This document shows positions 4,905 to 60,994 of a stretch of DNA of 64,000 bases, in pieces. The notes beneath the pieces are model-generated. The model did no database searches, had not been told where the DNA came from, and saw nothing but the letters and a program-made list of their open reading frames with translations. How positions within the stretch are numbered: position 1 is the stretch's first letter; every line of letters begins with the position of its first letter. The DNA is taken from positions 62,001 through 126,000 of the forward strand of contig JAUCBJ010003676.1 in the NCBI GenBank assembly GCA_032718475.1, given 5' to 3'. The translations under genes and the position numbers were made by a program. The stretch comes from Nemertoderma westbladi (lineage: Eukaryota; Animalia; Xenacoelomorpha).

Positions 4905-7900
4905 ATGAGTGACACACCCCATTCGACGAGATACCCACCTACCGACTATGACTCGTGCGACCCGGACAGATCGACAGTAGACGAACCGAGAAGGAGAACC
5001 CGAGATTCCACCGATGTCACACCGCTTGCGTCGCCGGTACCCCGAACGGAAATACCGGAAGCCGCAACGCGTGGCGATGGCAGAATCGAAGATTTCCTTA
5101 CCGTCCCGCAGACTAGATCGCGGGAACCGGACATGGTAAGTTCGACTGGAAGCCAGGAGAACGTTATTAGAAGTATAGGAGGACACATGGCCCAGATTAC
5201 TCGGAACCTTGGAGAAGGTTTTCGCGTTTTACGTGAGTTAACCGCCCCGATGTCGAGATACGAGTTCTACACCTTACAGGTAAGGATAGAAAGTAGGGTA
5301 CATGCCTCCGTAGATAAACTTAAAGGTTTAAACGAACTTGCAGAGTTGCGTGGCGACAACTTTACTCAGGTAAAGATAGTAGATAAATTAGTAAGTGCGA
5401 GAGAAAGCATTATCCAGTTTAAGTCAGTAATAAGATTGGCTCAACAGGAGCAGTTTGACCAACTGCTAGGTGAGTCAGTTTCGGACGCGTTGTTACAACC
5501 CGAAGAGGAAGAAGAACTCTACTGCCTGGACGGAAGGTTGGAAACGCTTACCAATTTTCTTCGTAGATGCGGCGTACCGATCGACGAACCGGAAGTCGAA
5601 CCGCGAGGGACAACGGAAGTTCTCACTACGGAAGGCTCAAAAGCCTACCAGCATCCACCTCTGGATAGATCGTTCGTTAGCGTACGGAGCGACGTTGGCA
5701 ACGTTGGCGACGTTAGTAGAACAGCGTCTGTAATTACTCGACAACAACAGGAGGTTGCACGCCGACAACAAGTCGCCGAGGAAGAAGCGCAACACCAGAT
5801 GGCACAGATCGCCATCGAAGGAGAGAAACAACATAGAGAGGACGAGGCAAGAATTGCGCAACTCAAGGCGCAAGCCGAATTCGAAGCTTCGGAAATGCGC
5901 AGACTGGAGGAGGACTTAGCGCGAGAAGCGGCGGCAGCAGCCGACGAGTTAGCACAGAAGAAAGCAGCATCCGACACTCGTGCCAAGTTGGAGGCGCGAC
6001 AAATAAACGCTCGATTAGCTATACAGGAAGCGGAGTTAGCGGCACAACAACAAGTAGCGGATCGACGTGAAAGGGAGATGCAACTACAGTTCGAACTAAA
6101 TCGTAGATCGCGCGAGACAGCGAACGCGCAAGCGGACCTCGAACTCGACGCGAGAGATAGATCTATAAGATCGCGAACTGGACACGACTTGTCTGCCCTG
6201 GATCGCATGGAAGCTCGTTATCGTGGAATACAGAAGCGAATCGAGGAACGAAGTGTGGGAGCGATAGATCGAGGAGAGGAGTTCGTCGAGGATTACTGTA
6301 AACGTTTTCCCCAAGTTATTCCTATGCTCAAACCCACGACTCCGATAAAACCGGTCTTCGTTACGAAACCTAAGGAAATAATGCCTGTGCGTTCGACGCA
6401 AGGCAACAGGTTTGTTGTGATGGAAATACCGCAACCTAGGGCGACTTCATCGCCAATTTTAGCAGGTAACATAACTAGTCCACCTACAGTAAGTCGTAGT
6501 CTACTTGTAGGAAGAGAGGAACCTGCGTTTATGACCATTAAACAGGTGAGTAAACCATTACAAGTTAAACCTGTGACGTGCTGTGCAAATCCAGTTATTT
6601 ACAGACCTACTACGAAACCCGACTATTTCACTCGACTGTTGACACAATGTTCGACGCAACCTACGACTTCGTGGAAGGCTTGCGAGCCTACCGAACTACG
6701 GATGAGGATGGATATGGGTAGTACCCACGGGATCGGACAACGTATAACGAGACCTACGACTTCGTGGAAGGCTTGCGAGCCTACCGAACAACGGAGAGCC
6801 GTAGATTCCGGACCACAACGGACGAGATCTAGAATAATACGTCGGACACGAACCCGCCAGCCACCTTATCCGGACGACAGTGACTCATCTAGCGACTCGG
6901 AGTCGACGGAACGGGAAATATTCCGTACTGGAGCGGCGGAGGATTACAAACGAGAGGAGAGGTCGACGAATCCATACATCGACAATCCACCTCGAGAAAC
7001 ACCCCAACAGAAACCCACGTTGAAACCAGCGGAAACGATCAGCGCTAAACAGTTCACCGAGATGACGGACAGAATAGCTCAACTCGAAGAACGACTCGAA
7101 GCGCAACCGTCGGATCGATCTCGAACCAGCGTGGAGTTGGAACAACCTAGACAACATCGACCACCGAGGAGAGAACAGGAGACTAGACGGACTCCGACAC
7201 ATCGAGAAGAAGATCCCATTAATAATTCCTACCGACGAACAACGCGCGGAAGGGAGCGACTGGACGACGCCACCGAACAGGGACGCGGACAGTTGGACTT
7301 AGTTAGCGAGATTGCGAAATTCGCGGCTAGACACGGATTAGCGGCACAGCAACCGCCGAAGTTCTCTGGCAACGCGAAACACTGGCGCACACTGGTAGAC
7401 TACGTAGAGTCCCAGATCGCTAAGTGTGCTTTCACCTCGACGGAGAAGTTTAATTACTTGCTACAAGTTCTGTCTGGTGAGCCGAAACGATTAGCGGAAA
7501 CCTTTATTGGAGTTCCCGATGCCTTTGAGTTGGCTTACGACCGTTTATATTCGATTTACGGAGGTAACGTAGCCATGGCTAAATCCATTATCGAAGACCT
7601 CTGCAGAGGAGGCAACATTTCGAAACCGATCGACCTTTTACGACTCGCGGACGAAATCAAGAACGCTATAGGGACTTTACGATCTATTGGACAACTCGAA
7701 TACGCTAACGCACCGACGGTTCTCATTCGAATAATCGGTCGACTTCACCATCGACTACGAAGAGAATGGCGACGCATCGAGTACCAGCGCGAAGAGGCCG
7801 GAGGGTTATTAAAACTCACCGATGTCTATCAACTGATTTCACGGGAGGCCGTGATCGAGACTCGATCGAACTATACTGATCACCACATCACGGCGGAAGG

Positions 7901-10900
7901 GATAGCTGTTTCTGCGCCGACTCGGACAAAACCGTTTCCGACGAACGCGAAAGCCGTTACTTACGCCACCCCTACTGAGACTTCTAAAGTTCTGACGCCT
8001 ATCGGCACCATGCAGCCACGACAACAGTTGCCGGCGGACTTTGTGGGATGCTCATACTGCAAGCGGAACGGCAGAAACCATAGCGGACATAAACTACGTA
8101 GATGTCGCGCTTTTAAAGAGTTAGGGATCGAGGAGAGGAGACTCCAAATCCAATCTCTAGATTCCTGTTGGAGATGTATGAAGCCAGGACACGTCCGGAA
8201 GGATTGCCCGAGCGACGATACATGTTCTCTGTGTGGACATAACCATGACGCGTTGCTTCACACAACCAGTCATACTCCGACCAGACGCTTTCGACGAGAG
8301 CATCCAGATAAAGCGGCTAGATGCGACGCGCTTTATAAGGAGCGTGCGCCGCACGAGATCCGTACCTTTTATACCGACTGTATGGATCAGTCAGGATCAT
8401 CGGACGAGGATGAGGAGGAAGACGACACTTTCTACGTGCATGCAGGTGAGGAACAGCCATCGATAACGCTCCTCACACAGAACCAATTGAAAGGGTTTAG
8501 CATGATTCCTATAAAGATTACCGGAACCCGAGGGAGCAAGCGTATATACGCCATCTTAGACTCTGCGTCATCGCATAGTTATGTCGACGAACAAGTAGCC
8601 GACGTAGTTACGGACATGAGTCAAGGTAAGACTGCTCAGTACACTGTAAGCAGCATGCATGGTAAGAGAGCGATCCCTGTGACAAGAGTAAAACTAACTT
8701 TAGACACTCTTCTTTCCAAAGTGGAACACAGCAAGGAGGAGCGCTCATTACTTCCGGTAAGAAATTTGACCTTTGCAGCCACGAAGGACTTTAGTAACTT
8801 GCTCGGCCCTGTGCCAGAGCAATCACCGGAAGATCGTAAGTATTTCCGACATCTTGGAATACCGGAATGTCCTGTTAATTATCGTTCCATTGCGATGTTA
8901 ATTGGGACAGACCAGTTTAACTTACATCAGGTATGGGAGACACGCCCATCTGTTATTACAGCGGGCAACCCCTACGCATGTAGAACTCCCATAGGTTGGT
9001 ATACTAGAGCACCAATACGTTCACTAGAGGTAAGTGACCAGGAGGACGACGTTTTGAGTACGTGTAGTTTATTGACTAACACGATAGATAATTCTCCTTC
9101 ACACTCCCGTGGTCCAATTGTACGGACAGCACTACGACAGACTTGCGTCACTAACGCAGACGCCACCGATACTGACGTAACCGATCTGGACACGACCATA
9201 CGGACCTCTGACTTACAACTACTTGCAGTAGACCAGGTTGTATTGACTACTGAAGACCAAAGGGTTGTTGCCGTGGATGACTCGATGAACGAGGATTTTG
9301 GAAGGCTTGCGAGCCTACCGAAAAATCCGAAGGTCATTGACCCCACCCACCAGGCTTCGACACCGGTCGTTGATCTTGGAAGGCTTGCGAGCCTACCGAT
9401 AGATCAAGAGGTTGTCAAACCGCCGCACGACGATTCGACGCCGACTAGTGACTCCGGAAGGCTTGCGAGCCTACCAGACGCATTGAAACTAGCCACCGCA
9501 GCGGACGAAGACGTGGATGAGGACCATGGCGCAGTGCAAGCAGCGCTTGACCGACTGCTGACTGAACGGACCATACAATGGTTGGAACAGGACTCAGCAG
9601 AACCCGGTAGTTACGAGACCGCTATGTCAGAACAGGAAAAACTGTCATTAAATATTATGAGAGATACCATTCGCCAGACCGCGAATGGCCACTATGAGGT
9701 TGGTATGTTGTGGCGCAATGGACAACCTAAGCTCGTTAACAATTACCCGCTTGCTTTGAGGCGACTCAAATCAATAAGGCAGCGATTGTTGCGAGACGAG
9801 ACGGCCCATATGCAATACAATGCACAACTTCAGACGTATCTCCAAAAGGGATACGCCATTAGGATGTTAAATCCCGAGGTAACCACAGACCAGACATATT
9901 ACCTGCCACATCATTTTGTTCGACACCCGGACAAACCTGGCAAGGTGCGTGTAGTCAACGACTGTGCTGCGCTTTACCAAGGGATGTCTATGAACAGCGA
10001 ACTGATGGATGGGCCGAATATGAATAATTACCTCATGGGAGTCCTAATGCGTTTTAGACAACGCAAAGTGGCTTTCACTTGTGACGTAGAGGCCATGTTT
10101 CACCAGGTTAAGGCTTTGGAGCGGGACAGGGACAGTTTGAGGTTTCTTTGGTATCCGGACGGAAACTTACAACTTCCGCCAGAAACTTACCAAATGCAGG
10201 TAAGAGTTTTTGGAGCCAGGGACAGCCCCAACTGCACCATGCACGCCTTAAAGCAGACAGCATTGGACAGACGAGACCAATTTGACCCAGAAGTAGTTCG
10301 GACCGTGGAACGAGATTTCTACGTGGATGACGGCCTCAAGAGTTGTGACACCTTGGAGCGCGCTACAACCATAGCACACCAACTCCAGGATTGTCTCGCT
10401 GAGGGCGGATTTCACCTGACGAAGTTCGCTTCCAACGAACCCGAACTGGTGAACTCATTTGACCCGACGGATCGTAGCGGAGGTGACTTAGACTTAGACT
10501 TAGAACCTCTGCCGACGACCAAAGTATTAGGACTTAGTTGGGACCCTAACACCGACAATTTTAGGGTACGTGTAAGGTCCAACGACCAGACTAGACCTCT
10601 CACTAAGAGGACTTGCTTATCGACCATGAGTCGATTGTATGACCCATTGTGTTTCATTAGTCCAGTGATCCTACATGCTAGAATCATACTCCGCAGCATT
10701 TGGCAAGCCGGACTGGAATGGGACGACCCCATCATCAGAAAAGTTAGCTGAGCGATGGAGGGACTGGGAAGCCCAACTGACGTTCCTACAAGACTATACC
10801 ATACCAAGGGTATACTTTCCTTTGCAAACCACCTTTCCTGCCGATTTAGAGCTTCACAGCTTTAGTGACGCTAGCAAGGATGGATTGGGGGTTACATTGT

Positions 10901-13755
10901 ACCTTAGACGACAAGTGACATCGGACAGCTACGATGTATCTCTCGTTACTTCAAGGGCTAGAACAATGCCATTGAAGTATATGACTGTACCTCGTGGGGA
11001 GCTGCAAGCCGGGACGATATCCACAGATATTGTCAGTCTAGTTCAACGCGAGCTGGAGGCTAACTTAAAGGTCACATATTGGACGGATGCGACGTTGGTA
11101 CTTTGGTACATAAACAACGAAGCATTTGAGTTCAAGACTTTCGTAGCCAACAGACGGGCTGAAATACTAGACCGGTCGCTCAAACAAGATTGGCGTCACT
11201 GTCCAGGGAAGCTGAACCCAGCTGACATCGCTTCACGGGGGATGCAACCGCTTGACTTTTGTAAACCGGACAATAAATCCTTTTGGTTTAGAGGACCCGA
11301 TTTCCTACAGCGACCATCAGACGAATGGCCACCGTTATTCGACGCGACAACCAACACCATACCAGAGGGTGCCAAGATAAAACTCGACAAGGTTGTCAAG
11401 TCTAAAGCGAAAGCCAACGCCAAGGTCAAGAGGAAAAAAGGACGGACGAAATCTGATGACCTGGACGCCAGACCTGACATTACGCCAGACGTCTCACCAG
11501 ACATTCGACCAGACGCTTGTACGAATCCTTCACCGGATGTTCCGCGGGAGATTTCACCAGACGTTTCGCGGGATTGTTCACCAGATTACTCGCCAGACTA
11601 TTCACCAGAAGAGACACTAGATTGTTCTCCGGATTGTTTGCCAGATTGTTTGTTGGAACTCTCGACAGAATGTCTACCGGACGTCTCACCAGACTTTCCA
11701 CCAGACATCTCGACAGACTGTCCACCAGGCTGTCTACCAGACTTTGAACTAGACTTTCTGACAGAAGTTACGCTAGACAGACTTTGGGACCGACGACAGG
11801 ACATTTCGCCGGATGTTCCGCGCTATGTCTCACCAGACGTCTCACCAGACTGTTCACCGGACGCTTCACCAGACTGTCTATTAGACACTCCATTAGAAGA
11901 CCCACTGGAGCGGACATTTAGAGACTTACCGAATTTGACTTCTTTGGACGACAAAGGTGTGGCCACAGCGATCACACTCCGCTCAAAGAAAGTACTTGAC
12001 TTACCACCTACAAGTAAACGTGTGACTAAGGTTAGGAAGCTAACAGGCTCACAGGAACACACTGACACTGTAGAGTTGAAACCATTACTGCCAGTCGACA
12101 CATTAGGTGCGGACGGCAAAGGTAAGACCGTAGAGATTGACGTAATTGGGGACTCAGACAAACCTACCGGAAGGCCCGTGGGCCTACCAAGTCCAGACAA
12201 GTATCCACACTACGACTACACCTTACCCGATGACGTCACCAACACTTACATTGACAGGATAGTGAACCTAACTAGATCATGGACTGACGCATGCCGCAAG
12301 TTAGCATGGCTCAAACGATTGAGACAATATGCCAGAGGCAAACGCGACTTTCCTAGAAGACTTACCTTAAAGGAAATTGGCCACTGTGAAGTTGATATCA
12401 TTAGACATTATCAATTGCGATATTTCGCACGAGAGTTCACAGCGATCAAACAAGGTAAACAGATTAAGTCTTCACCGATTTTGAGTTGGAGTCCGATTAT
12501 TTACCGGGGCTTACTTTGTCACAAGTCCAGACTCCAAAACATCGACTTTGCACTTGACTTTAGGTATCCTATCATCATACCGCAACACCATGAATTACAG
12601 CGCGCTATGATACTGGACGCACATGTACAACTCAAACACGTAGGTAGACACCACTGTCTATCACACTTACGCTCGAGGTTTGTACTGATTAGACCTAGTA
12701 AGGCACTGAGTTCGGTAACACGGAACTGTATTATTTGTAAGAAGGTGCACGCGAGGATAGGACACCAAGAAATGAGTGAACTACCACTAGCTAGATTACA
12801 GGCGTTTAGACCCCCTTTCACTGAGACAGGGATAGACTGTTTTGGACCCATAATCGCGAAACGCGGAAGGGTACAGGTAAAACGTTGGGGATTGATCTTC
12901 ACTTGTATGGCCAGCAGAGCTGTCCATATAGAGCGAGTGACAGACTTGACCACCAATGCCTTTATCCTAGCCTTACGGTGATTTATCGCTAGACGTGGAT
13001 TGGTCAAATCCATATACTGCGACCAAGGGACAAACTTTGTGGGTGCACGGAACGAAATAACCAGAGCTTTGAGAAAATTGGACCAAAACCAGATTTCCGA
13101 GGAACTACGTCCTCACTGTATTGTTTGGTTTTTCAATACTCCAGACAGTCCGTGGAGAGGCGGCGTTTGGGAAAGGCTGATTGGCTCAATAAAGACAGCT
13201 ATGGCTAAAGTCGTACCGACGCAACACATCTTGACAGACGACCAACTGACGACGTTACTAATTGAAATCGAAGCAATCTTAAATACTAGACCGATCGCTT
13301 TGATCCCAGACAATAACGACGTACAGTTTGCCTTGACACCAGCGCACCTGCTTATGCAGGCGCCGACGACACTGTTGCCCATTTCGGTACCCGTTGATAG
13401 TGACGGATACGGCAACAAGGCTTGGAAAATCACTCAATTACTTGCAAATAAATTCTGGGAAATATGGCAGAAATATTATTTGCCCTCTATTTCGACCAGA
13501 ACCTCTTGGTATCTAAATACCCGATGTTTAAGACGTGGTGACCATGTTTTATTGGCTGAAGCTAATCTGAAAAGACGGTTTTGGTTGACTGGAGTCATTT
13601 TGACCACGCACCCTACATCTGGTGTAGTAAGGACAGTTACTGTAAGGACTATCGACGGACGTACCGTAGATAGGCCTGTACAACGTCTCGTACTCCTTGA
13701 GGAGACTAGAAACAAGACGGGAGACTACAAATCTCCACCCAATATTAGTAAATAG
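4905..13755 (+). pseudogene. BEL-1 gag-pol polyprotein (frameshift near 10740, in-frame TGA at 12979-12981)
   Basis: Three BEL Gag knuckles (e.g. CWRCMKPGHVRKDC, CSLCGHNHDALLH), protease ILDSASS, RT YYLPHH/FYVDD, RNase H FSDAS/NPADIASRG, integrase HHCC, GIDCFGP, CDQGTNF, WERL. Confidence 0.93.
11460..11890 (+). repeat. Degenerate 12-bp (SPDx) tandem repeat in the BEL-1 RNase H-integrase linker
   Basis: Recurrent TCACCAGAC-type units encoding SPDV/SPDC/LPDC in frame. Confidence 0.8.
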
Positions 13756-14489
13756 ATGTGGGACCTTTGTTGGCCGCCACATAGACCTACTGTATTTTAG
13801 TTATTGGTATTTGTATTACTGTACGTGCATTTGTAATCCTCTTCACTGTAGATAGAGACAGCGGTGGAATTCCATTGTCTTTATACGTGAACATGGAGGG
13901 TAGTACCCTTATGTATCACATAGGAGCGGGATTGTGTGTACAGTAGGAATGGAATTCCACTTGGAACCCACAAGTGAGACAATTTTCAAAAATTATTAGA
14001 CAAATCCATTTATTTGGATTTAAATTTAAGAAAAACGATTCTCCAGTGAAAGCAAATTCTAGAATACAGCTAGATAAAAATTAAAATTGGGGAGGACAAG
14101 AGCGGATGGAAGGCTTGCGAGCCTACCGATAAATTTTTTTTGGAAAAAGAAAATCGGCCTTGTTCTACGTAGTCGTGTCTACTATTATTTAGACCAATTA
14201 ATTCTCGACTGCATTATTTTCTTTGGGAAGTAGCATGGGAAATTAAAAGGTGAGTATTTTAGACTCGCGGCTAGTTTACCCAGAATTCGTTTTTTATCGG
14301 CACATTTTTTGGATTAGGAGCCAGTGCGAAATCACGCGAACCCGAAATCATTAGGCAAAATGGGTTGGGGTTTAGAGCAGAGTTGAGCCAAAAGCCGACA
14401 AATTCTAAGTCACCTCACATCTAACCTCTATTTTGTGCTTCATCTAGTAGAAACGTAACGATATGTAACCACATATATATTCGTATACG

Positions 14490-17400
14490 ATGGCGGAGAA
14501 GATGTATAAAGAGTTACGTCAAGGGTTTACGCAAGAACAAGAGCACCAGGCGCCATTCAATCTTTATGGAGCTAAAAACTTTAGTGTGTTTGGAGTGGAG
14601 AGTATGGCTAGGAGTACGGCCAAGCTCGCTAAATCCAAGGCGGACCCGAATGTTACGCGACAGCGGTTGGATGCATACAACAAAAGAACGGAGGAATTAC
14701 GCGCGGAGTACAATGCGTTATATCCCTACGATGCGTTATGCGACGCTAGCGACATTTGCGAGGATCCAGACACCGAAATACGCCGATTGTATCATACGCT
14801 GCAATATTTGACGGTAAACGAACCCTTACCTGCAGCTAGAGACGAATTTGAAGGAATGCATCTTTATAGACGCGCTCGAGGAGCGGATCCAGAGACCAAG
14901 GACGCGTTCTCCATATACAAACTGTTTTATAAATGTGGAGCGTGTATGCGCGAGCAAGACAACGCGATTCCTATGCGGTTGAACTCGGAGAACCCCGAGC
15001 CGATATTAGCGCGATGTTCACACCACCAAAGTCTACGTTACCAAGAAGGCGGATACCCTTTGACAAATCCGTATCATTCGTTTAAAATGAGTGGACCGAA
15101 CGCGGGTGAGATCGTTATTTACGAACCCAAATTAGTCGAACCAGACGTCTACAGCATGGTAGTGGACGAGTCTAATAAGTCGACACAAGAGAAACGGGAA
15201 GCTTTGAGCCTCTACAGGGCGTACAAGGCGTACGAGAAAGGCGAGATCGAGGAGTTCGGCGGAAGGCTCGCGAGCCTACCATTCTATTGGATATCCCACG
15301 ATCAAACCGAACCCAAGGAGATGACACCCGAGCTCTTCGATAGTATCACCTTTGCTCAGCGTTTGTCGCAGAGACTACAGATACCTCATGTCGAGATGAC
15401 GCGAGAACCTCAGCCCCATTCTACTGGAGCGATAGTACCGGTTGCGAGACCAACTAGTTTTCCTATTAGTATACCGACCCGGAAGGAGACAACTTACGAG
15501 ATCCCTATAGTTGAACACCCGGAGATCATCTCGAACCTGGATTTCCTCCCATCGGTTACCTTCGGTGATGTGTTAGAGTCAGCCGAGTTGCGTAAAGTAA
15601 TAGTTCAAAAAATCGTACGCAACGTGCCTCCACATATCACGGACTTTAAGGAAGTGGATCGCGCGGGGACGGATATCGCACCTTGTATCTTGCGAGGATA
15701 TCTGACGAAAACGATTCGATTATGGATCGGAGTTGGAACGTTTGAGACCGACACCGATATCGCGACCAATTGGACCGGTAAACCTATTAGTTTCGATGAT
15801 GAAAAGTCGATTGGGAGAATTTGGAACCCTACCGACGATTTACTCGACGATTGGGACGTGACTAGCCGATCTCTGAAAGAGAATGGTTATATGTTTTACG
15901 ATAATGAAGGAGGAAGCCATCAGCAAAGCCTCACTTCAAAGACTATACAGATTAGAGCACCAGATGGCGTGTTACATGTCTTCAGCCGACAGAGGAGTGA
16001 TAGGAAGATGCCTATGCCGGAAGGAACGACGCAAAGACACGCGATGATAAAACGGATAGTTAAATCCATGGACCTGGCTTGTAGCATAGAAGCTAGGATG
16101 TTGCCAAAGGCCGTGCGAGACGTTGTGTTGGATAAGAGCATCGTCAAGATCGGATCCGGTGTACGGGATGACCTCATTAGCGACTTTGCAGGGATGCCCA
16201 CGGAAGAGGACCGATTGCCTACGCCATACGTGGATACTAGACCATTGTTGCTTTGGGCTATTGAGCAAGGATATTTTAGGGAGTATAACACGCTAAAAAC
16301 TGGGACGGGTTATATCTCATATCTAATGTTCAGTTGGGATTACAAGGAGAGTAAGAGGAACAAATACACGGACGTATACGGAGAGGGAGATACCCCCGGC
16401 GTAAACGAGTTCGAGTCACAGTTGAAGTGGCGAGGTTGCGTGTATTGGGCGATTACTTCACCTCCGCGGATAATCTTGCAATACTATTTAGCGATAGAAT
16501 CTTCGGTTAACGTTTGTTTCATCGCGGACGTAGTATCCAGAACCCTAAAGCGACACCCGTTATGTCTTGGCGAAGGACATACCTTTTACGATGGAGGAAG
16601 GACGCATACTGATGTATTCCGACGATTTCTCCAACCCTTTTATAACACCGATGCGCACTGCGAAGTTTTCACGCGAGCGGGACTTAGCGTTTTCAGGGAC
16701 GTCTATCTCACTCACGCGGGAAGTCTAGTTGACAGACCGTCGATGTTAACGTTAGTACCCTACGACGGGGAACGCCACGCGGAATTCGAACGCCCGGAAG
16801 GATCCTGGAAGGCTCGCGAGCCTACCGCCCATCATGACGATGTGGATCCGACCGAGTTGGCGCTAATAGACGAACCGTTACGGCAACTCATAGAAATAGA
16901 GGAGAACCTTCCGAGGAAGACGCGAACTGAGATACGCGAGTTGGAGAAAAGCGATGCCATGGTTTGTGTACAACCTACGGAGACGAACATACCGACTGAC
17001 CCGGATGATGAAAATTATCACGTGGACGGTAGCGCTCGCCCCATCGGAGATCTCATCTATGAGCGAGTTTGGTATCCTGCCAACACTATTTGTGGCAGAT
17101 GTGGAGCAACTGGCCATCACGCAAAGAAGTGCGGAGCGAAGCACATATCTCTACCGGATTTAGTATGCAACTGGTGCGGGGATCAACGTTCGCACACTTT
17201 CTACACTTGCTGGCGTTTCGTGGCGCAGTGTACTTATTGTAATATTAAGGGCCATAGGGCATCCGAATGTCAACTTAGAGACGTCCCCTTTGAGCACATG
17301 TCAGTTAAAATCGTTCGACAATTATTCGACCATTGGGAGGATCTAGCAGACGAGCATGTATCGACGCAGCGACGCCGCTTCCCTATGAGAGCACATTTGG

Positions 17401-17831
17401 GATTTTGGGCCTTAAACTCTCTCATAATGTCAAAGGAAGGATATGTATCGGCTATGCCTCAGTACGATGAATTGTTGGAGGTATTGGATATATTGCCGTT
17501 GGACAGTGGATTCAAAGTTGTGCGGGACTATTTCTTACAAGTGCACCCCGACAACAAGAATACTTGGAACTTTCAAACTGTGGTGAACAAGATTACAGCC
17601 GGAGAATTCGATAAACTGCGAGTTGAACAGCGGAATCGAGGAGCCTGGCATTCGATAGCTTGGGCATACCGGAGCGCATTTTATCACAAACGCGTAACCT
17701 CGTGCATTCCGGACGAGACCGACGTTTTGCGTGAGACTGGCTTCAAGGCCACGCCGTTAGCAGAGAAGACGCGTCACCCACAGGATGATCAGCAATTTCG
17801 TATACTCAAAGCCCAGAAGGCCGGACAATAG
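14490..17831 (+). CDS. BEL-1 accessory ORF: unknown N-terminal domain + DEDD 3'-5' exonuclease (WRN/RNase D-like) + three zinc knuckles; same frame resumes past one TAG to 18245
   Basis: ExoI-like FYDNEG (~15894), TIQIRAPDGVLHVF, ExoII-like LPKAVRDVVLDKSIVKIGSGVRDD, YVDT, ExoIII-like YYLAIE; knuckles CGRCGATGHHAKKC, CNWCGDQRSHTFYTC, CTYCNIKGHRASEC. Confidence 0.8.
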   Translation: MAEKMYKELRQGFTQEQEHQAPFNLYGAKNFSVFGVESMARSTAKLAKSKADPNVTRQRLDAYNKRTEELRAEYNALYPYDALCDASDICEDPDTEIRRLYHTLQYLTVNEPLPAARDEFEGMHLYRRARGADPETKDAFSIYKLFYKCGACMREQDNAIPMRLNSENPEPILARCSHHQSLRYQEGGYPLTNPYHSFKMSGPNAGEIVIYEPKLVEPDVYSMVVDESNKSTQEKREALSLYRAYKAYEKGEIEEFGGRLASLPFYWISHDQTEPKEMTPELFDSITFAQRLSQRLQIPHVEMTREPQPHSTGAIVPVARPTSFPISIPTRKETTYEIPIVEHPEIISNLDFLPSVTFGDVLESAELRKVIVQKIVRNVPPHITDFKEVDRAGTDIAPCILRGYLTKTIRLWIGVGTFETDTDIATNWTGKPISFDDEKSIGRIWNPTDDLLDDWDVTSRSLKENGYMFYDNEGGSHQQSLTSKTIQIRAPDGVLHVFSRQRSDRKMPMPEGTTQRHAMIKRIVKSMDLACSIEARMLPKAVRDVVLDKSIVKIGSGVRDDLISDFAGMPTEEDRLPTPYVDTRPLLLWAIEQGYFREYNTLKTGTGYISYLMFSWDYKESKRNKYTDVYGEGDTPGVNEFESQLKWRGCVYWAITSPPRIILQYYLAIESSVNVCFIADVVSRTLKRHPLCLGEGHTFYDGGRTHTDVFRRFLQPFYNTDAHCEVFTRAGLSVFRDVYLTHAGSLVDRPSMLTLVPYDGERHAEFERPEGSWKAREPTAHHDDVDPTELALIDEPLRQLIEIEENLPRKTRTEIRELEKSDAMVCVQPTETNIPTDPDDENYHVDGSARPIGDLIYERVWYPANTICGRCGATGHHAKKCGAKHISLPDLVCNWCGDQRSHTFYTCWRFVAQCTYCNIKGHRASECQLRDVPFEHMSVKIVRQLFDHWEDLADEHVSTQRRRFPMRAHLGFWALNSLIMSKEGYVSAMPQYDELLEVLDILPLDSGFKVVRDYFLQVHPDNKNTWNFQTVVNKITAGEFDKLRVEQRNRGAWHSIAWAYRSAFYHKRVTSCIPDETDVLRETGFKATPLAEKTRHPQDDQQFRILKAQKAGQ

Positions 17832-18898
17832 ATTAAGAAGATAGCTAATGTCGCCGAGAGGACGACATCGAAGTCGCAAATCTGGATGACTCGGGGCACG
17901 GTTTCCCTTGCTAGAGAACCACGCGGAGGGACAGGATACGCTTTGACTGAACCCATTAGGATTCAAACGACGTCAGAGAGCGAGGTGTCAACGGACGGAA
18001 CGGTCCTACCCTTTCGACTTCCTCCTAGCGTTGTAGAGACTCGATCCGATGTTAAGCCGACAGTTGGAATCGGACGAGGATTTAGAGGATTGAGCGCACG
18101 ACGGATGTGCGAAACTCCCGTCGTCCCCTTTCCTAGTGTTTTGGAACCACCGACGACTCGACGCCGAAGTCCGAGCCCAGTTCGACCTCGACCACCCCCC
18201 AATCGCACTAGAGGACGTGGACGAGCCCGCTCAGCGAAGGAATAGGAAGCGAGTGGAAGGAAGGCTTGCGAGCCTACCGATTTGGATATTTCATTTGGAT
18301 ATTATATTTGGATATTTATTTGGATACTTATATTTGGATATTATATTTGGATATTTATATTGGACATTATATTTGAATGTTGGGTTTGGAGGAGCGAGAT
18401 ATGGAAAGGAAGGCTTGCGAGTCTACCGTTAGCAATTAATGCTCAGGAGAAGATATCCAGACCAGCAGGACGAACTTTTAAGATCGTCATGAGGACATTA
18501 TTTGGAAGTTATTAGCGCATTGTGTTTATATTATATTTGAACTGATTTAATTTGGTGAAGGTTTATTATGTATATTTACAATATATAAAGATTTATCGAA
18601 AAGGTTACAATTATTTGTTCGATTTGTTTTGATTTATTTGTTCTGATTTGTTTAATTTGCTTACCTTGATAACCGAAAGCCTTTTTTTTTGTATTTTAGG
18701 CACTAAAGTTAATTAGTAAATTTGTATTTGTATGTACGATCGATTGTATTTACGCCGTATCTGCAATATTAAGTATGCAATAATTAGATAGTGATTATAT
18801 TTATATTTTAGGCCCTACCAGTAGATTTAGAAGTAGTTTGTAAATATTTTATATTTCGATTGGTGAAAACAGTCTTACTTACTGTTTTCATGGAGCGG

Positions 18899-19310
18899 TG
18901 ATGAATTATTTCACTATAAGGTAGCATTTGTAGTTTAACTTTAACGTAAAAACTTTCGAAAATCCAACGCATTTTGATTAAGTTACAGTAATGTAATATG
19001 CCTATTCATATTTGTACACATAAAACCCTTAGGTACTCTCGTGGTGTAGTGGTCAGATGGTTAAGGCGTTGGTTACATTACAGATAGGTTACGAGTTCGA
19101 ATCCCGGTCGGGAAATTTGTATTTTGGGGCCATTTATTTTCGTTTGGTGCTAATTGGTGGACCAATGAGAAGCGTACAACGTAGCGAATGATGAGCCAGG
19201 CCAATCATAGGGCATAAATTATCTTATTGCTCAAATGTGAGGCAGTGGAAAATTCTGTTAGGATTCCATGTCCCAGATTAGTGTAAGGGCCGGATTGCGT
19301 TGAATGATGA
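18899..19310 (+). repeat. BEL-1 3' LTR, left part
   Basis: Starts TG directly after the PPT; its ~115-bp CCAAT-containing unit (~19190-19305) continues as a second copy after BEL-2 at 35847-35960. Confidence 0.75.
19036..19113 (+). other. tRNA-derived sequence (Pol III box A/box B) inside the BEL-1 LTR
   Basis: GTGGTGTAGTGG (box A, 19041), GGTTAAGGCG, GTTCGAATCCC (box B, 19095); imperfect cloverleaf, no credible anticodon arm. Confidence 0.6.
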
Positions 19311-21537
19311 TGTTAAACAACCGCGACACCTATACTAACAGCAGAACTGTTGAACAGACAAATACCCGTATACCTCTCTGCCAACCTAATGAGCTCTCGC
19401 CTAACCAATAAGACACAAAGACTGCTCTACTGTTAAGTAAAGGGGATCAGGAGTGTGCTATTACTAAATTGTAAGGGTTGCTAAATACAAAACCGCTACT
19501 TACCGTTGGATGGCGCTAATCTGCCGTCCGCTAATATATTTTACTAAATTTACACAACTCCTGCAAAATCGCTTGTTCCTTTCTCTACCGATCGCTCGAT
19601 AGAGAGCTAACTGTTCGAATCTATGAGCCACGCGGGAATAACCAAAACAATAAACCCGAGTCGGCTCCCTAAGCTTACTTAAGACGAGTGCGAGGGGCTT
19701 TGCACTCAGAGTATATTCTTACGCCTAATTTTACCACTGAAATACGCTAATGCCTACGTCTTTTCTAATCGCGAATACTGGGGGTTCCCTAACGGAATGT
19801 GTGAATGCGAGAATATTTAAAATAATCAAAATGGTACAGTACAATGTCTTTCGTAGGTGATACCGCTCTGGGTCTAAACTTGCCTGCAGCTGGCTTTAGG
19901 CCAGCAACTCACTAGTGTCTTGCGTACTGACTATTGCGATCTAGTTTATTACCCGCTAATGCAAATAACCGCTTAGCGTGAATAGTTTACAGTACTCTAA
20001 TTATTACCTTAGCTACTCTCCGCTATGCTGCGTACTAATTCTTAATTTTTACTAATCAATTACAGTCACAAATATGTAACAGCGTACTAATTACTAAGAG
20101 TTCCAGAATGCGTAATTCTAATTTATTACGCAACAGGTTTCGCTAGTAATAGCCTAAATTGCCGTATTACTTTGACCTAAGCAGTAGTTAATTGTTGTAA
20201 CTAAGAAATAGAAATCAATCAAAAGGGAATGGGGTGCCTACCTAAGCATTCGTAATCATAGGCACACTTCAGTAACACACCAATCAGCATCAGCAATCAC
20301 AGATCACAATAGTACAACTTGCAATTATACAATCTGCAATTATATAATTCGCAACATAATAATTCGCAATTGACTAATTCGCAATCTACTTACTCGCAAC
20401 TTACTTACTGTAAGGTATGCAGGCCCCTCCCGGGTACATCTAGGCTTCCTAACTAACCCAATTCCTGCCCCCTAATACTAAATAGAGACAAAACCTGGAT
20501 CATCAGCCCCCTAATTACTGTACCAGCGAGCGGTCTCCAACCTACAGTCCAAATCGCCCGACCGCAACGTTGACCCCCGCCAGCGTTGCCCGCTTTTGAA
20601 TCCTCCGCTCTCCCTAGTCGCTCAACCCCCCGATGTGCCCACCGCCCACTGGCACCTTAGCCCTTCATTATGCTAATAGCTACCGTAGCGGCGCATGCAA
20701 ATCACAAAGTCTGACAGTCTCAGAAATCCCTTAGGATTATTGCGCAGAAAGGAATCACATAGAACCATTAATCAAAAGTAGAAATCATAGTTCAGTTGTA
20801 ATTAGCAGTAATCGAAGGAATTAATTGAGAAACACAATCGAGAGTAATCGCACTAGCAAATCATTCCAAGAAATTAATCAAAATTAGCAAATTGCAGAAA
20901 ATACGCTAAAATATCCGTCAAAAATTGAATAGGGACAGCTCAGCAAGTACAAAGATGATAGCAGATCATGTGAGGTGTCATGGGGCAGATTGGTAAGGCT
21001 CTACCGGCACACCGCCAATTTATAGGTGATCCGGGTGGGTGATGCAATAGGGTGACTCAATCGCTCTCCTATTGGCTCTCCAGTCCGTGCTAGCATTAGA
21101 CCAACCTGGAAGCAGTTAGTCCAATAAGGAGGCCGGATTGTAGCCCTATTGCTCCCCAACCTCAAATTATTACCATATATGGTAATGGTTCACGTCCCTG
21201 GCTGCTGAATGGCCAGGACAGCGTCCCTATATGCTAGCCCTATCGATGCTAATATCAGCAAGCACAAAATCCAGGGTCCGAATAAACTTGCTACCCTGGA
21301 ACTATCTACATATATCCTAATACAAAATTACGTAGGTAGGGCTACATACTATACAAAATGGATGGATTCAAAATATATGGGCGTTTCGATTTCCCTATCT
21401 AAATATCATTGCGTTATTATGCCTTATCTAAAATATTATGCTGCACAACGGACTAATATTACATACAGTATAACGGACTAATATTGTGTACAGTATAACG
21501 ACTAATATATGTGGATACAGCGCCATATACCGTAACA
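19311..21537 (-). repeat. BEL-2 3' LTR (2227 bp)
   Basis: Near-identical to 33619-35846 (about ten differences by eye). Confidence 0.95.
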
Positions 21538-22411
21538 CCGCTCCAAGGGAAATCATACAATGTTTCCCTCCAATTGTAGAAGAGTATAAGGTGATGTATA
21601 CAAACAAAATAAATTTCTTCCAAATAATCTAGAAAACACAATAATTCTACTATTTACAAATATTGCCATAGATATTGCATAATGAATTTACATACAAATT
21701 AAAATTACAAAATATTATCTCTCTCAATGTTAACGATTATTACATACAAATTAAATTTACAAAAATACTGTTTCTCATTCGTTCTACATAATGATTACTA
21801 CATACAAAATTAAATTACAAAAATATTACTTCCTTTATTTATTTACAAATTGACTGTCTACCTATTGAAATGGAACATGGCTAGGACAATGTCCCCCATT
21901 TCCCATCTCAAATTAACGATCAACATTAACAAGATAAACTAAATATAAACGTATTTGAGGCTAAATTTTTAACTAAATTGCATTAAAGGCCGATAATCAA
22001 ATTAAATATAAAATACGTAATAATTTCTTTCATTTTCGGACTTTACTTAATTTCTTATAAAAAACGCAAATCATCTTGGTTTGATGATTGCTCAGGTAAG
22101 TGAAAGGAGTAAGCCAAACCCGCGGGTTTGTCTCCCCAATCACTTCCTTTGCCTCTTTCAATAAACTTTAGAGCAAATAAAGTCATATACACAAAATCAA
22201 ATATAATATAGGCTCAAAATCATATTTCCAACGGACTATAAAATAAAATTATTTCCTTTCAATATTTTTCGGCCTTCGAAAATAAAACTCTAAAATATGG
22301 ATACGACTAGTGTATATGAGTCCAGTCGAATGATTGATCAAAACCTACGATATGCATCAGAGCGACGATGATGTATATGTCTAGAGTTTGACGCTCCGTG
22401 ATATTATAGTC

Positions 22412-23512
22412 TCATCGGCTAGCTCCTGGGTCTCTCGGGCTCGCTCCCTTCTCCAGATACACCAGTCTACCCCCTGTAGACTCTGTTGACGGCGTCCTTG
22501 AGGCGTCACTTCCCGGAACCGGCGACGACGTTCCCTGGGCACTGACTATCTCCCGACTGGTGCTCCTCCCTCGGCCTCGTCCCATTTGCCGTGTCCCTGT
22601 GGGCGCCTCCGCCAACTCCTCTTTCTTCAACTTTATAGAATGGAACTGCTCGTCCTTGGCTTGACGCTTGCCAAGGACTCCTCCTTCTGGTACTTGCCGC
22701 GAGCTGTGAGGTCCGGCTGTTGTCTCTGTGGGCGCGGCGGTCCTGATCCTCCACTCGTTCAGAGGTCAATGACCCCAAACGAGTCTCCTTAGGCCGCCAA
22801 TTGTGCGCTGGGTAATAAATCTAGACGTATATATCAGAGCGACGATGATATATAAAGGATTGGACATATTCGGGCTTAATAATGCGTTCGTCGAAACTTC
22901 CCGAAATAATTTGGAGTAAATATCGTATAAATCGCGGATCGTGGGTATGGTTAGTAGACGGATGGACTGCGCGAATCTCGTCTGGATACTCAGGCGTGAC
23001 CTTCCTTTCCTGGTGAAGCGAAGTGAACGTGGTCCAGGAACTCGAGTCCCGTGCCGCTTCGCGCCGCGCCTCTAGGTCTTTATAGGCTCGGTATAGCGAA
23101 ATGGCCGCCACCGTGTCTATCAAAGCGGGTGTCGAACAGGTTTAATCTCCGTATACGGATCTAATGTCGTAACGGTCGGCGTAATGGGTCTCGGAGTTCG
23201 CTTTCCGCTGAAGTCGATACTGATCATCGGGTTGCTCATCGGGTAACCTCCCTCGTTATATCTAAGGAACTGGTGAGCTTGACATCGCGTTAATATCGGT
23301 TCTGGATGTTGCTCGTCTAGTCGGTCGGGAATCGTGGGTTTGTATTTCCCATTTAGCTCCATCACCAACCGCCCATGGTAGTAAACGTTCGAATCTTTAC
23401 ATCCCGGTCGCGCGAATGGTAACTCCGCCTCCTCTCTGGCAGTAAATCCTCTGCGCGGTTGCGCTCTAATATCCTTCTCCATTATGCCCGCGTATATACA
23501 TATATATCCCAA
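22412..23512 (-). pseudogene. BEL-2 accessory ORF remnant (internally deleted, frameshifted homolog of the BEL-1 accessory ORF)
   Basis: IPDRLDEQHPEPILTRCQAHQFLRYNEGGYPMSNP matches BEL-1 IPMRLNSENPEPILARCSHHQSLRYQEGGYPLTNP; ISLYRAYK vs LSLYRAYK; RRGFT vs RQGFT; RG-rich tail. Confidence 0.85.
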
Positions 23513-24240
23513 TAAGTGTTCCGTTACGCAAACCAGTTACACCGTGGGTAATCAGTTAGATGTCGCAGAAGGACAGACCTCCCGAACCCCCCCCCCCGCC
23601 TTCCAGCAGTTCAGGTTCGACTCTCTAGATCCCGTCTCTTCCTAACTAACTATCCTCTAACCTATTCCCATGCATAGCGCAAAACTTTGGAGATAAACTG
23701 GCCGTGACCAACTTACTTTTTGATGCCCAAACTACTCCCATTACTCGTACTAAACTACAGTAGTTAGAAAGGACTATAGCCACAATACTCGACTATACCA
23801 AACCCACAGGTTTGATAATCGAACATCACACATCCTGCAAACTACTGAGTGGGGTCCATGTACGCCTCTGGTGCTACTAACCTTTAGCACCTTAGTTGCA
23901 CTGTTGGCACCAATCTGTGGAAGTTGCTAAACTCAATTTACACTCCTATGTAATATAGCCGTCACCATGGTTTCTAAATGCTATTTTCCAGGCTTCACGA
24001 CTTTTCAAATTACTGTTTATCTATAGACGAATTCTAAAACGCGTCTATACACAGCGTCTGGAATTGTCTTGGGTTCACTTTTCTAATTTTAAAATTTTAA
24101 TTTTTCCAAAAATTTTGAAAATAAAATTTTGTTTTGATACCCACCAGACAAAACTCAACGCAAATCACCACAACCCCGCTCCTATGCATTTCCTTGTATT
24201 TGCATACGAGGAATGCATACGAAGTGAGTTGCGTCCAACA

Positions 24241-27200
24241 CTAACTCTGTTTTGAGGCAGGAGACAAATTATAATCTCCCGTCTCGATACGTGTCTCCTC
24301 TAATAACACGATATCTTGGACCGGTCGGTCCAAGGTGTGTAAACCATTAGTTTTACACTTTTTTGGGTGCGGACACTTGCACCTAATTTTCACAGTGACT
24401 GTGCGCACTATGTTTTGCACGTCTGGGTGTGTGTGCAAGATCACTCCCGTCTCCCAATACTTTCTCTTGACAATAGGTTCGGTTATCAGTACGTAATCTC
24501 CCCTTTGGAGGCCCCGAACCGTTTTGTACCACTTTGTTCTGGTGGATATGGTGGGAAGATAGTATTCCCGCCAATATTCCCAGAATGTGTACGCTACTAA
24601 TTGAGTCACTTTCCAGCTCTTACGACTATATAGGTCGGCACTAATGGGTTCTGATGCCGGCACAAGAAATGCTGGACTCTGCATTAGCAAATGATTCAGC
24701 GTTAATGCAACACCGTCTGGCAACATAGCTATCGGCCTCGAGTTTAGGGTATGCTCGATTTCAATGAAAGCTGTAACCAGTTCGTCGTCGGTAAGTTGTT
24801 TGTTTACAGGCAACGTCTTAGCAATGGCCTGCTTCACAGAGCGAACTAAACGCTCCCAACTTCCTCCTCTCCAAGGACTTTCTGGAGTATTGAATCTCCA
24901 TTCTACTCTTTGCGGCAAAAGTGCTGCAGAAATTTCCTTATTCTGTGCCGCTTTATGAGCCGCGTTCAACTCGCTATTCCCTCCGACAAAGTTTGTACCC
25001 TTATCGGAGTAGAACGCCTTTACTAGTCCTCTCCTGGCCATAAATCTCTTTAAGGCCAGGAGCAGAGATTTGGTCGACATGTCTGCCACACGCTCAATGT
25101 GTATGGCTCTACTAGCCATACATGTCAGTAGCAGACCCCATCGCTTGTGGGTCAGCCGTCCACTCTTTGCTTCAATCGGACCAAAACAGTCCACCCCTGT
25201 GTTCGTAAAGGGTGGGTCATATGCCTGCACTCTCGCTTCCAGGAGTTCAGCCATCTCCTGTTCCAATACTCTGGCGTTCACCCTCTTGCAAACCAGACAG
25301 GCGTCATACATAGTGCCGACTGCCCTGCTTGGCTGCAATAAAATGAATCGCTGTCTCGCTGCCGACAGACAGTGTAACTTTCCCGCGTGATGCAACCGCT
25401 TGTGTATATCCCATAGAATCGCTCTTTGCAATTCTATTGGGTGACTAGGGATTATCACTGGGAACCGAAACTGTGAGTTTATGTCGACAGTCTGGATTCT
25501 CGATCTATGACAAATTAAACCCTTATGGATTAATGGGCTCCATTTTCTAAGGGGTTTATAGAGAACTGGTCGTTGAGCCGATAATAGATGGAATTCTTTT
25601 GGGAAGGCACACATTTGATAATGCTTCAAATGCTTTAATTCCGCTTGATCAATCTCATCCTCTGTCAGAGGTTGTTTCAATTTCCGAATTCGCTCACTAT
25701 TGGTGCTCAATGGTTCTCTCAAATGTTTCGAATGTTTTAAACAAAGGTACGAAATGTATCGGCTTAACCACGCAGTTCTTTTACAAATTGTCAGCCAAGA
25801 GGCAGACGAATTTAGTAATTTGTCATAAATACTGCATGACTCTAATGCCAGCGACGGTTGTCCGCTAACTAATGGAAGTTTCGAATCCAAACCCGCAGGT
25901 TTGGAAACCAAAGGCTCCATTTTGTCAGTCATTTTCTGTCCGTCACTTATCAACTGTGACTGTCGTCTAGTCTGTAAGGGTGGTTTTACGTCATAACTTA
26001 CCCTTCCGGACCTAGTAGTCACGTAAGTCTGTTGGTCTGACAGGTCTCCGGGCCGCTCCAATGACTCTTCAGGCCGCTCCAATGACTCTTCAGGCCGCTC
26101 CAATGACTTAAGTTTGGCTTTAGACTTTGACTTAGAGACTTTCTCCACCTTGACTTCTGCATCTTCAGGCATCGGATTGGTCACTATCTTTAGTCGCTCT
26201 GGCCAATGTTCCTGTGTCCTCGTTAGAAAATCAGGTCCATGCAACCAAAACTCCTGAGACTCTTCCTGACAGAATTCCACCGGCATTGCACCTCTCGAAG
26301 TTATGTCGGCCGGGTTCAACACTCCCGGACAATGTCTCCATTGTTCCTTCGTCGAAAAGTCAACGATCTGAGCGCGTCTGTTGGCCATAAATGTCTTTAG
26401 TGCAATATTGTCGGCCGCAATGTATACTAACACCAAGGATGCGTCCGTCCAATAGAATAAGGTCAATGTCGTGTCTAACTCCTCTGTTATCTGCTTACTT
26501 ACCTCGACTGAAACTACAGCCGCCTGTAACTCTGCACGAGGGACAGTCATGTATTTGACCGGCATTGTCTTTGATCTAGAAGTCACAAAGGCCGTCTCAA
26601 ACTTGTCCTGACTTACCTCTCGGCGAAGGTAGGCTACCATACCAAAGCCGGTGTCACTTGCGTCACTGAACAGATGCAGTTCGAGATCAGCTGGAAATAC
26701 CAGCTGATTCGGAAAGTAGGAACGGGGTACGTCTATGTTTTTCAATAGATGTAACTCGGCTTCCCACTCCCTCCACTGCTTTGCATGTATAGGAGATATT
26801 GGTTCGTCCCACTCTAAGTCGGACAACCAAATTTTCCTCATGCACGCTCGTGCCTGTAATATAACCGGACTGATAAAATTCATCGGGTCAAATAGTCTAC
26901 TTAATGTCGATAAGCAAATCCTCTTTGTCAAAACTTTGTCTGGGCTACTGGGCTCAAATCTAACTCTTACCTGGAACTTATCTGAGTTCGGGTTCCAAGC
27001 GAGTCCCAGTACTCGCGCCATGGGGATTGGTTCTACCCCCAATTCTATGTCTCCGCTCCCGCGATCTTTTACCGGGAACGATTCTAATAGGGCCTCCGAA
27101 TTTGTAGTGAACTTGGTTAGAGGAAATCCCCCTGTAGCCAAGCACTCTTGCAGGCCGTGAGCCACTTCTATGGCTTGTTCCGCTGTGTCCTTGGACACCA

Positions 27201-35846: not shown

Positions 35847-35851
35847 GATGA

Positions 35852-40365: not shown

Positions 40366-40429
40366 TATACAGGTGACATATTTTTATTTATTTATTTATT
40401 TATTCCAGACAATATATATATATATCAAT

Positions 40430-60709: not shown

Positions 60710-60994
60710 ACCCTTCTCATCATGTTGGCAAACTTTTTAAACTGTGATTTATCGACAATGAAATGGACACCCTTAAACCAACTGTAACCACGCAATGGTA
60801 TTTGTGTTTCCTCGTGTGTTATGTGGAGTCCAACGTCACCCTGCAGATGTTTCGACTGACGCAGGGTCGTTTATGTATAGTTTACCCTGATTTTGGTCAT
60901 TGGGACCAACGCCATTGAATTATTGGAAATGGTAAAGATTTGAAGTGGAATTCATTGTATTAATTGCAGTATGTTATGTTGTCCGTTGCGTGAG

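Follow-up and report, generated by a model that had tools for sequence, protein, structure and literature searches.

The third open reading frame (ORF3) of a BEL/Pao long terminal repeat (LTR) retrotransposon copy, here called E1, in Nemertoderma westbladi very probably encodes a DEDDy-type 3′-5′ exonuclease domain, as judged from its motifs and from remote homology, followed by three CCHC zinc knuckles and lying in the position of env. The nuclease domain is under purifying selection across the copies of the element, and ORF3 is an old and selected gene of the lineage that individual copies have often lost. The window analysed, that is, the whole stretch of 64,000 nt examined (assembly GCA_032718475.1, contig JAUCBJ010003676.1, positions 62,001-126,000, forward strand), contained three BEL/Pao elements, E1, E2 and E3, whose features are listed in Table 1 with positions counted in the window.

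Domain organization of ORF3

ORF3 of E1 started 735 nt beyond the stop codon of pol and was located upstream of the polypurine tract (PPT), where a preliminary description of this DNA had placed an open frame of 1113 aa. Every motif named in that description was located, namely FYDNEG at aa 469 (containing D471 and E473), IQIRAPDG at aa 486, LPKAVRDVVLD at aa 538, KIGSGVRDD at aa 553 (containing D561), YVDT at aa 580, and Y666-x3-E670; nt 15900-15908 encode D471/E473, nt 16170-16172 D561, and nt 16485-16499 Y666 and E670. The three zinc knuckles, also described there, started at aa 868, 893 and 914, and the region containing them, when cut out, matched Pfam zf-CCHC with an E value of 0.0024, which is under the curated cut-off. 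That they were copied from the Gag knuckles looks unlikely (tblastn E values of 0.06-1.6).

The N-terminal part of ORF3 (aa 1-440) matched no recognised family in library searches; within it, a C-x2-C ... C-x2-H arrangement (nt 14934-15026), the second half of which is kept in E2, was observed as a possible zinc site. ORF3 contained neither a transmembrane segment (best Kyte-Doolittle mean over 19 residues, 1.48) nor a strong hydrophobic run at the N-terminus (best mean over 10 residues, 1.22), in line with the lack of an evident signal peptide or membrane segment noted before, and ORF3 was rejected as an env gene on these grounds.

Evidence for a DEDDy-type nuclease domain

The four lines of evidence for the domain are of the weaker kind and partly independent of each other. 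When ORF3 and P0001, a relative described below, were compared together with 39 bacterial PF01612 proteins (40 were fetched and one, L120, was dropped for its wrong frame), HHalign gave 85.9% and an E value of 5e-6 with ExoI and ExoII in register; the score was 42.6, versus 20.1 for the best of 56 column shuffles, none of which reached it. The ORF3 domain alone scored 26.8 (E = 0.002), a value reached in 0 of 168 shuffles, and three other regions of ORF3 gave E values of 0.09-0.27 in the same comparison. The E3 fragment and P0001, each taken alone, matched weakly (E = 0.24 and 0.02, respectively). The ExoI and ExoII regions matched three separate DEDDy subfamilies under shuffle control: D471 and E473 line up with the D-x-E (ExoI) of the family, to which RNase D, WRN, EXD2 and Mut-7 belong, the same YDNEG being present in E3, and D561, the ExoII aspartate after K-x-G, was in register in the three subfamily alignments. 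The columns common to E1, E3 and P0001 were the motif columns.

P0001, a protein of 558 aa in ENA encoded by a single contig of 7460 nt, was the only relative found when 1.84 billion representatives were scanned in full with HMMER (E = 1.7e-4). Like ORF3, it possesses a nuclease, an acidic linker, three knuckles, and then a shared helix (34% and 25% identity); unlike ORF3, it possesses the canonical set of D-x-E, D and Y-x3-D, has no long N-terminus, and is known from one contig only. Its Atlas model (pLDDT 0.44, with structure scores under the Atlas naming bar) retrieved PF01612-bearing clusters in 10 of 10 structure rows, at TM ≤0.73 by target. In an Atlas feature search with aa 430-740 of ORF3, the nearest clusters were also those of PF01612 (score 0.92), with 23 of the 30 matches in that set. 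No further relative was found in word-index protein searches, carried out among proteins of near length (4604 candidates), among shorter ones (3175 candidates), and with alignment A2 (4751 candidates); metagenome scans gave 86 and 117 pattern matches with none confirmed, viral-contig scans had no result, and P0001 against plasmids had none either. No close cellular relative of ORF3 was present among the 1.84 billion representatives.

Several results weigh against the assignment. ExoIII was not put in register by HHalign, and the reading of Y666/E670 as ExoIII comes from the pairwise alignment with YLRGD of P0001 (alignment A3 was used, as the MAFFT alignments A1 and A2 misregister ExoIII). The Atlas match to PF01612 comprised 161 shared features, short of the 170 that matches within one family typically have, and Atlas scores of at least 0.9 were reached by 4-10 per 100 shuffled proteins. 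The ORF3 nuclease had no match in Pfam, NCBIfam or PHROG, Pfam PF01612 matched neither ORF3, nor its domain, nor P0001, and a PDB sequence search with ORF3 gave no match; HMMER profile-to-sequence comparison with bacterial DEDDy profiles (L120 included) gave 2.1 bits, not above the top shuffles. Both AlphaFold2 models had a pLDDT of 34 and showed no confident fold. In the structural check proposed in the preliminary description, the Foldseek ranking was headed by RNase AS and had EXD2 in fifth place, both of them DEDD enzymes, but the E values were 0.36 or worse, and neither this nor VIA-align of the model (Z <4) was used as support. The nuclease with knuckles proposed in that description accordingly is supported at the level of remote homology (HHalign, Atlas and P0001), with neither a confident fold nor a Pfam match obtained. 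A reading of the middle domain as something other than a DEDD nuclease, with motifs that resemble one by chance, is nevertheless highly improbable: it would account for the missing curated family and fold and for the Atlas scores of shuffled proteins, but it is opposed by the shuffle-controlled matches to three DEDDy subfamilies at ExoI and ExoII, by the PF01612 structures matched by the P0001 model, and by the coincidence of the motif columns with those that E1, E3 and P0001 have in common.

The canonical ExoIII signature Y-x3-D is absent from ORF3, which has Y666-x3-E670 instead. The fourth carboxylate is thus E, not D, as had been suspected from the outset, and a reduced or lost activity would be possible, which is a further point on the negative side. 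With the set D-E-D-E and no Y-x3-D, the domain is predicted, from ExoI and ExoII, to work in the manner of a DEDDy enzyme, as a variant failing the strict Y-x3-D rather than a canonical member. Catalytic activity is, on balance, considered somewhat more likely than not.

Variation, selection and loss of ORF3

Other copies were read as contigs from four sequencing runs (three samples from three studies of one organism), which contained 56-68% of the sampled words of the window. The presence of the ORF in other copies, on which the preliminary description had made its proposal depend, was borne out: the nuclease domain (nt 15860-16540) was covered along its length by contigs in 30 of 30 bins in all four runs, with no small indels listed and with conservation at the protein level. 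Selection was evident as well. Silent changes accounted for 32 of the 40 variants listed, of 71, corresponding to pN/pS of 0.07-0.10 with variants counted as pooled sites, not as events on a tree; were all 31 unlisted variants replacements, pN/pS would be 0.36-0.55 (p ≤0.009). Among the rows listed, the codons of E473 and E670 had only silent variants; therefore, Glu at ExoIII belongs to the family and does not result from damage.

The stop codon of ORF3 (17829-17831) differed in the contigs of other copies in four of four runs, accounting for nearly the whole local depth, and 137 further codons beyond it are open up to 18245. Therefore, the ORF3 copy of E1 is broken too, and the full gene of the family is likely to have about 1250 codons. 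The preliminary description had set an ORF3 open throughout against a gag-pol with two lesions. Both lesions were found (a frame break near 10.7 kb and a stop at 12979-12981), but ORF3 is not open throughout; being broken like gag-pol, it therefore provides no evidence through a contrast between intact ORF3 and decayed gag-pol. In two of the four runs, a deletion form of ORF3 was seen as a joint that leaves out 15052-18115. The summed contig depth was lower in ORF3 than in pol in two of the four runs, which is not a copy number and was not used.

Relatives of ORF3 were observed in both other elements. E2 is inserted in the 3′ LTR of E1, its LTRs, which differ by 10 mismatches and one gap over 2227 nt, are 99.5% identical, and its gag-pol is unbroken (2766 codons, 24241-32541); its ORF3 remnant has neither nuclease nor knuckles. 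E2 is thus a young element with intact gag-pol that has lost the nuclease, and for this reason the nuclease looks optional in cis. This is weakened by the possibility that the deletion occurred at or after the last insertion of E2, a point to be held against an optional role. In E3, the remnant carries YDNEG in one frame and LLPP..KIGSDIKAD..VDT in another, and it ends before ExoIII. The reverse transcriptases (RTs) of E2 and E3 share 59% and 38% identity, respectively, with that of E1. Since relatives occur in families this far apart and since the hairpin motif of the respective family (see below) lies inside ORF3, with two copies in E1 and one in E3, ORF3 is a long resident of the BEL/Pao lineage. 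An alternative, that ORF3 is a captured host gene carried as a passenger without benefit to the element, would be in keeping with its deletion or breakage in E2 and E3, its stop in E1, and the deletion forms in the E1 family. It conflicts with the strong excess of silent variants, the occurrence in three families with RT identity down to 38%, the family hairpins within the coding frame, and the lack of a close cellular relative among the representatives searched; this alternative is already largely refuted and is extremely improbable.

Dispersed hairpins in the three elements

A hairpin motif of 20 nt was found 12 times in E1, always on the sense strand, spread over three reading frames and non-coding DNA. 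Ten places differed from its commonest form by ≤3 mismatches, versus 0 in 100 shuffles. E2 possesses a hairpin of its own, with a stem unlike that of E1 and the same Y-G-Y-G loop (chance expectation, 0.18 matches), and that of E3 occurs in 3-5 copies, one of them inside the ORF3 remnant (chance expectation, 0.05). Hairpins with a Y-G-Y-G loop and at least 5 Watson-Crick pairs, a pattern picked after the repeats had been seen, numbered 10 in the sense strand of E1 and 4 in E2, with shuffle means of 0.18 and 0.13, respectively. In an alignment of 17 copies from E1 and E2, 89% of the cells pair, and both sides have changed in 5 of the 8 pairs; much of this covariation reflects two lineages, although compensated changes are also present inside each of the two elements, at 12169 in E1 and at 28125 in E2. 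The stability of single copies is not out of the ordinary (z of +0.3 to -4.5).

The hairpins show that ORF3 co-evolved with the cis signals of the element. They could be candidate dispersed packaging or export signals; the repeats may also represent a palindromic protein site at the DNA level. A more elaborate proposal, in which the hairpin (5-12 copies per family) tags self RNA and ORF3 reads the tag and trims untagged competitors or silencing RNAs, thereby acting as a barcode-guided ribonuclease by which tagged RNA is spared or packaged, is regarded as improbable.

Possible functions of ORF3

Genes for env are expressed from a spliced message. In E1, splice-donor-like sites in the leader and a predicted acceptor 5′ of the ORF3 ATG (Table 1) suggest that ORF3 is likewise made from a spliced message. 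Before all three ORF3 starts, a GTAACG together with an ATATA run was noticed by eye (14460-14492; 23480-23530, minus strand; 61945-61971), possibly a shared promoter or splice signal.

The function put forward here, tentatively and by analogy, is that of a trans-acting, optional accessory enzyme with RNA 3′ trimming against host RNA defence as its main role. A spliced message, as for env, would yield a soluble ORF3 protein; its knuckles would grip single-stranded RNA and direct its 3′ end into the DEDDy site, in the manner of TbRND of Trypanosoma brucei (see below). The targets would be small RNAs that act in silencing, or tails by which the RNA of the element is destabilised. The benefit would be conditional and shared in trans, so that single copies may lose ORF3. 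Such a role is favoured because BEL/Pao elements replicate by gag-pol alone and E2 moved recently without the nuclease, and the loss in young E2 fits an accessory role better than proofreading. To our knowledge, counteraction of small-RNA defence is known for few retrotransposon proteins of animals. Two points tell against the proposal: mature PIWI-interacting RNAs (piRNAs) are usually 2′-O-methylated and resist 3′ trimming. In addition, Rodriguez et al. (PMC5408684) saw no clear connection of a DEDDy ORF3 with copy number.

ORF3 could alternatively be a replication helper, recruited to the particle via the hairpins and trimming the primer, RNA ends or cDNA ends, proofreading included. The DEDDy class processes structured RNA and single-stranded DNA ends, and such a function was among those proposed for the rotifer ORF3s (PMC5408684, in part). 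The knuckles weakly resemble nucleocapsid and Air2 knuckles in profile comparison (E values of 0.05-4), and the same-strand hairpins dispersed in each family could recruit ORF3. On the other hand, gag-pol alone suffices for BEL/Pao replication (PMC8742986), E2 underwent recent transposition while lacking the nuclease in cis, Gag has knuckles of its own, and recruitment of ORF3 by the hairpins is hypothetical; a helper role is considered rather unlikely.

Dead DEDD folds are in use in Maelstrom and EXD1, and ORF3 might similarly be a weak or dead nuclease serving as an RNA-binding scaffold like Rev or CERV, which would bind the hairpins to export, localise or shield genomic RNA. The last D is replaced by E and kept so, ExoI reads D-N-E in E1 and E3, and an Arg-rich basic tail and splice-like signals are present; moreover, CERV of Cer1, made from a spliced message, exports genomic RNA (PMC10309623, in part), and inactive DEDD derivatives are mentioned for piRNA biology in the available sections of PMC5408684. 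The scaffold proposal, judged unlikely, has to contend with the retention of the four acidic positions and the tyrosine, with the canonical set in P0001, and with the silent-only changes at the two acidic codons having listed variants, as would be seen for metal ligands. No analysis separates the trimming enzyme, the replication helper and the scaffold from each other. With the domain unbroken, it can be expressed and assayed, and the function of retrotransposon DEDDy genes becomes testable.

Organization of the elements and other features of the window

Pfam domains DUF1759, zf-CCHC, Peptidase_A17, Integrase_H2C2 and DUF5641 were found on E1 in BEL/Pao order. DUF1759 in Gag was matched with an E value of 1.6e-9, and the match to zf-CCHC was weak; in Pol, LDSAS (aa 1218) and YVDD (aa 1806) were located, and the protease was followed by RT, RNase H and integrase in this order. 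Judged by Gag, Pol and PPT, E1 is a member of Belpaoviridae. Its left edge at about 4506 was placed where the family depth goes up and loose contig ends occur. No LTR pair of E1 was found within the window, the 5′ LTR and the primer site, which in Belpaoviridae is one for tRNA-Arg or tRNA-Gly, being missing. The 3′ LTR is split by the insertion of E2; a repeat unit of 18899-19310 recurs at 35847-35936, and the 3′ LTR of E1 likely resumes from 35847.

Table 1. Features of E1, E2 and E3, with positions in the 64,000-nt window
Feature	Position	Strand	Basis or remark
E1, BEL/Pao LTR retrotransposon copy	4506..19310	+	Pfam domains; depth step; no LTR pair
E1 splice-donor-like sites, AAG/GTAAGT twice, at 4733 and 4835 in the leader	4733..4840	+	Pattern
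E1 gag-pol	4905..13755	+	Broken twice; protease LDSAS, RT YVDD
E1 20-nt hairpin motif, 12 copies, at 5630 (weak), 6673, 6766, 9300, 9378, 9456, 12169, 14108, 15261, 16807, 18259 and 18408	5630..18427	+	Repeat search, shuffles; two copies inside ORF3
E1 branch point, pyrimidine tract and AG, predicted acceptor 5′ of ORF3 ATG	14421..14447	+	Pattern
E1 ORF3, ATG frame, 1113 aa	14490..17831	+	Other copies differ at its stop codon
Predicted DEDDy-type 3′-5′ exonuclease domain of ORF3	15822..16580	+	Motifs, HHalign, alignment to P0001
Three CCHC zinc knuckles of ORF3 (CX2CX4HX4C, CX2CX5HX4C, CX2CX4HX4C)	17091..17270	+	Motif; shared with P0001
In-frame continuation of ORF3 behind the stop	17832..18245	+	Arg/Pro-rich basic tail, 11 R+K in 35 aa
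E1 PPT	18892..18898	+	TG directly after; same core before E2 3′ LTR
E1 3′ LTR, first part	18899..19310	+	TG start after PPT
E2, BEL/Pao element inserted in E1 3′ LTR	19311..35846	-	2.2-kb LTRs, 5-bp target duplication
E2 hairpin, six copies, at 22115, 23799, 25888, 28125, 30746 and 32224	22115..32239	-	
E2 ORF3 relative, internally deleted	22412..23482	-	N-terminal block 60% over 43 aa; basic tail
E3 hairpin, GNAA loop, at 55216, 59101 and 62165; weaker at 52791 and 53005	52791..62183	+	
E3 gag and pol, more distant BEL/Pao family	53978..60709	+	Pfam, RT comparison
E3 ORF3 relative, broken	61969..62798	+	ExoI and ExoII in different frames

Between RNase H and integrase of E1, a tandem repeat with 12-bp units encoding a PDxS-type peptide was observed (11461-11890), and E2 aligns on both sides of it. 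Inside the 3′ LTR of E1, a tRNA-like stretch with A- and B-box-like motifs was seen by eye (19030-19120); ARAGORN and Rfam made no call on it, with no notable tRNA or RNA family, and it may be a remnant of a short interspersed nuclear element or part of the LTR. Directly after the 5′ LTR of E2, a splice-donor-like sequence (33590-33620, minus strand) was present and not a TGG-type primer-binding site, so that priming of E2 may be unusual. The RT of E3 (57083-60709) has YVDN and not YVDD; YVDN is reported for Cer7-Cer12 of C. elegans in the available part of PMC554778. Between pol and ORF3 of E3 (60979-61403), repeats that could form hairpins are present, three of 83 nt and two of 37 nt.

Elsewhere in the window were a tandem array of about 53 units of 42 bp, about 95% identical (46023-48500); inverted arrays of a 16-17 bp unit flanking a 0.9-kb core, resembling a miniature inverted-repeat transposable element or a foldback element (44312-45607); a dispersed repeat, about 400 bp long and with a poly-C run, of which three copies were present and one is inverted (1579-1981, 3083-3474 and 40013-40372); and, at 50661-52471 and 37651-39452, pieces of a non-LTR element with a match to EEP endonuclease (E = 3e-4) and of an ORF bearing DUF7869 (E = 8e-8).

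Comparison with known systems

In 2000, Malik, Henikoff and Eickbush reportedly described an RNase D-like domain downstream of integrase in Cer13, a BEL-type element of C. elegans; that domain is said to stand beside an env derived from phleboviruses, not in the place of env, and reportedly without a description of knuckles. A nuclease gene in the env position is already known, and the doubt about novelty voiced in the preliminary description was well founded: DEDDy ORF3s with a DEED motif were published in 2017 for Juno/Vesta LTR retrotransposons and Terminons of bdelloid rotifers (Rodriguez et al. 2017, PMC5408684), with 3′-end processing or a silencing-related function as the proposed role, and the findings were repeated in reviews (PMC5718144, PMC6431247 and PMC6338049). 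As far as the available sections of these sources go, the rotifer ORF3s resemble that of E1 in being RNase D-like DEDDy proteins encoded by a separate ORF after pol, in lacking a membrane segment, and in being gained and lost family by family. They differ in their hosts, which are Juno/Vesta LTR (Gypsy-type) and Penelope-like elements versus BEL/Pao here, and in their motif, DEED versus D-E-D-E with D561 third and E670 fourth. The same sections describe no triple CCHC, such as that of E1, but a Cys-His-Cys motif in Vesta2 and Vesta5, and contain no measurement of selection on the DEDDy ORFs, which was measured here.

The layout of a nuclease followed by knuckles has a cellular counterpart. TbRND of T. 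brucei (PDB 7C42 and 7C45) combines a 3′-5′ Exo domain with a subsequent CCHC array as in ORF3, a pairing called "very unusual", and its ZF1 and ZF2 bind U-rich RNA (PMC7797062, in part). According to the same part, TbRND is a cellular, mitochondrial protein with four knuckles and a short linker, whereas ORF3 has three knuckles about 170 aa past the nuclease, an N-terminus of 440 aa and a basic tail. TbRND entries came up weakly in the profile search, with E values of 1.9 and 3.6 over the knuckles only. The first Atlas match of P0001 was a Euglenozoan cluster bearing PF01612 and zf-CCHC (0.87), which is taken as a lead only.

BEL/Pao elements are known from animals, and their replication is described as poorly understood in the ICTV profile (PMC8742986). 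In the parts of PMC8742986, PMC3118150 and PMC554778 available, Belpaoviridae share with E1 a Gag with DUF1759 and knuckles, the protease-RT-RNase H-integrase order, YVDD, and the PPT, and share with the present elements TG..CA LTRs and a third ORF after pol. The third gene is described there as env-like, whereas ORF3 of E1 has no membrane segment. E1 exceeds 14 kb without its 5′ LTR and E2 measures 16.5 kb with LTRs of 2.2 kb, compared with quoted sizes of 4.2-10 kb and LTRs of 0.2-1.2 kb. In the literature search, which left the sequences of Repbase, Dfam, GyDB and the supplement of PMC3118150 outside its scope, no exonuclease ORF was found described for BEL/Pao, and the main texts of PMC3118150, PMC554778, PMC2774666 and PMC13524379 do not contain the word exonuclease. 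The same search turned up no case of dispersed hairpins for BEL/Pao. Dispersed packaging signals of picornaviruses and hepatitis B virus consist of many stem-loops with a common loop (PMC6281560, in part), whereas the hairpins of E1-E3 are near-identical copies of 16-20 nt in an LTR retrotransposon.

What appears to be new is the combination of a BEL/Pao host, a very long ORF3, triple knuckles, the D-E-D-E set, selection, and family-specific hairpins, the last of which are cis signal candidates for a virus family with poorly understood replication (PMC8742986). To the reports on rotifers, the present analysis adds purifying selection, the persistence of the gene in three divergent BEL/Pao families, and a layout like that of TbRND.

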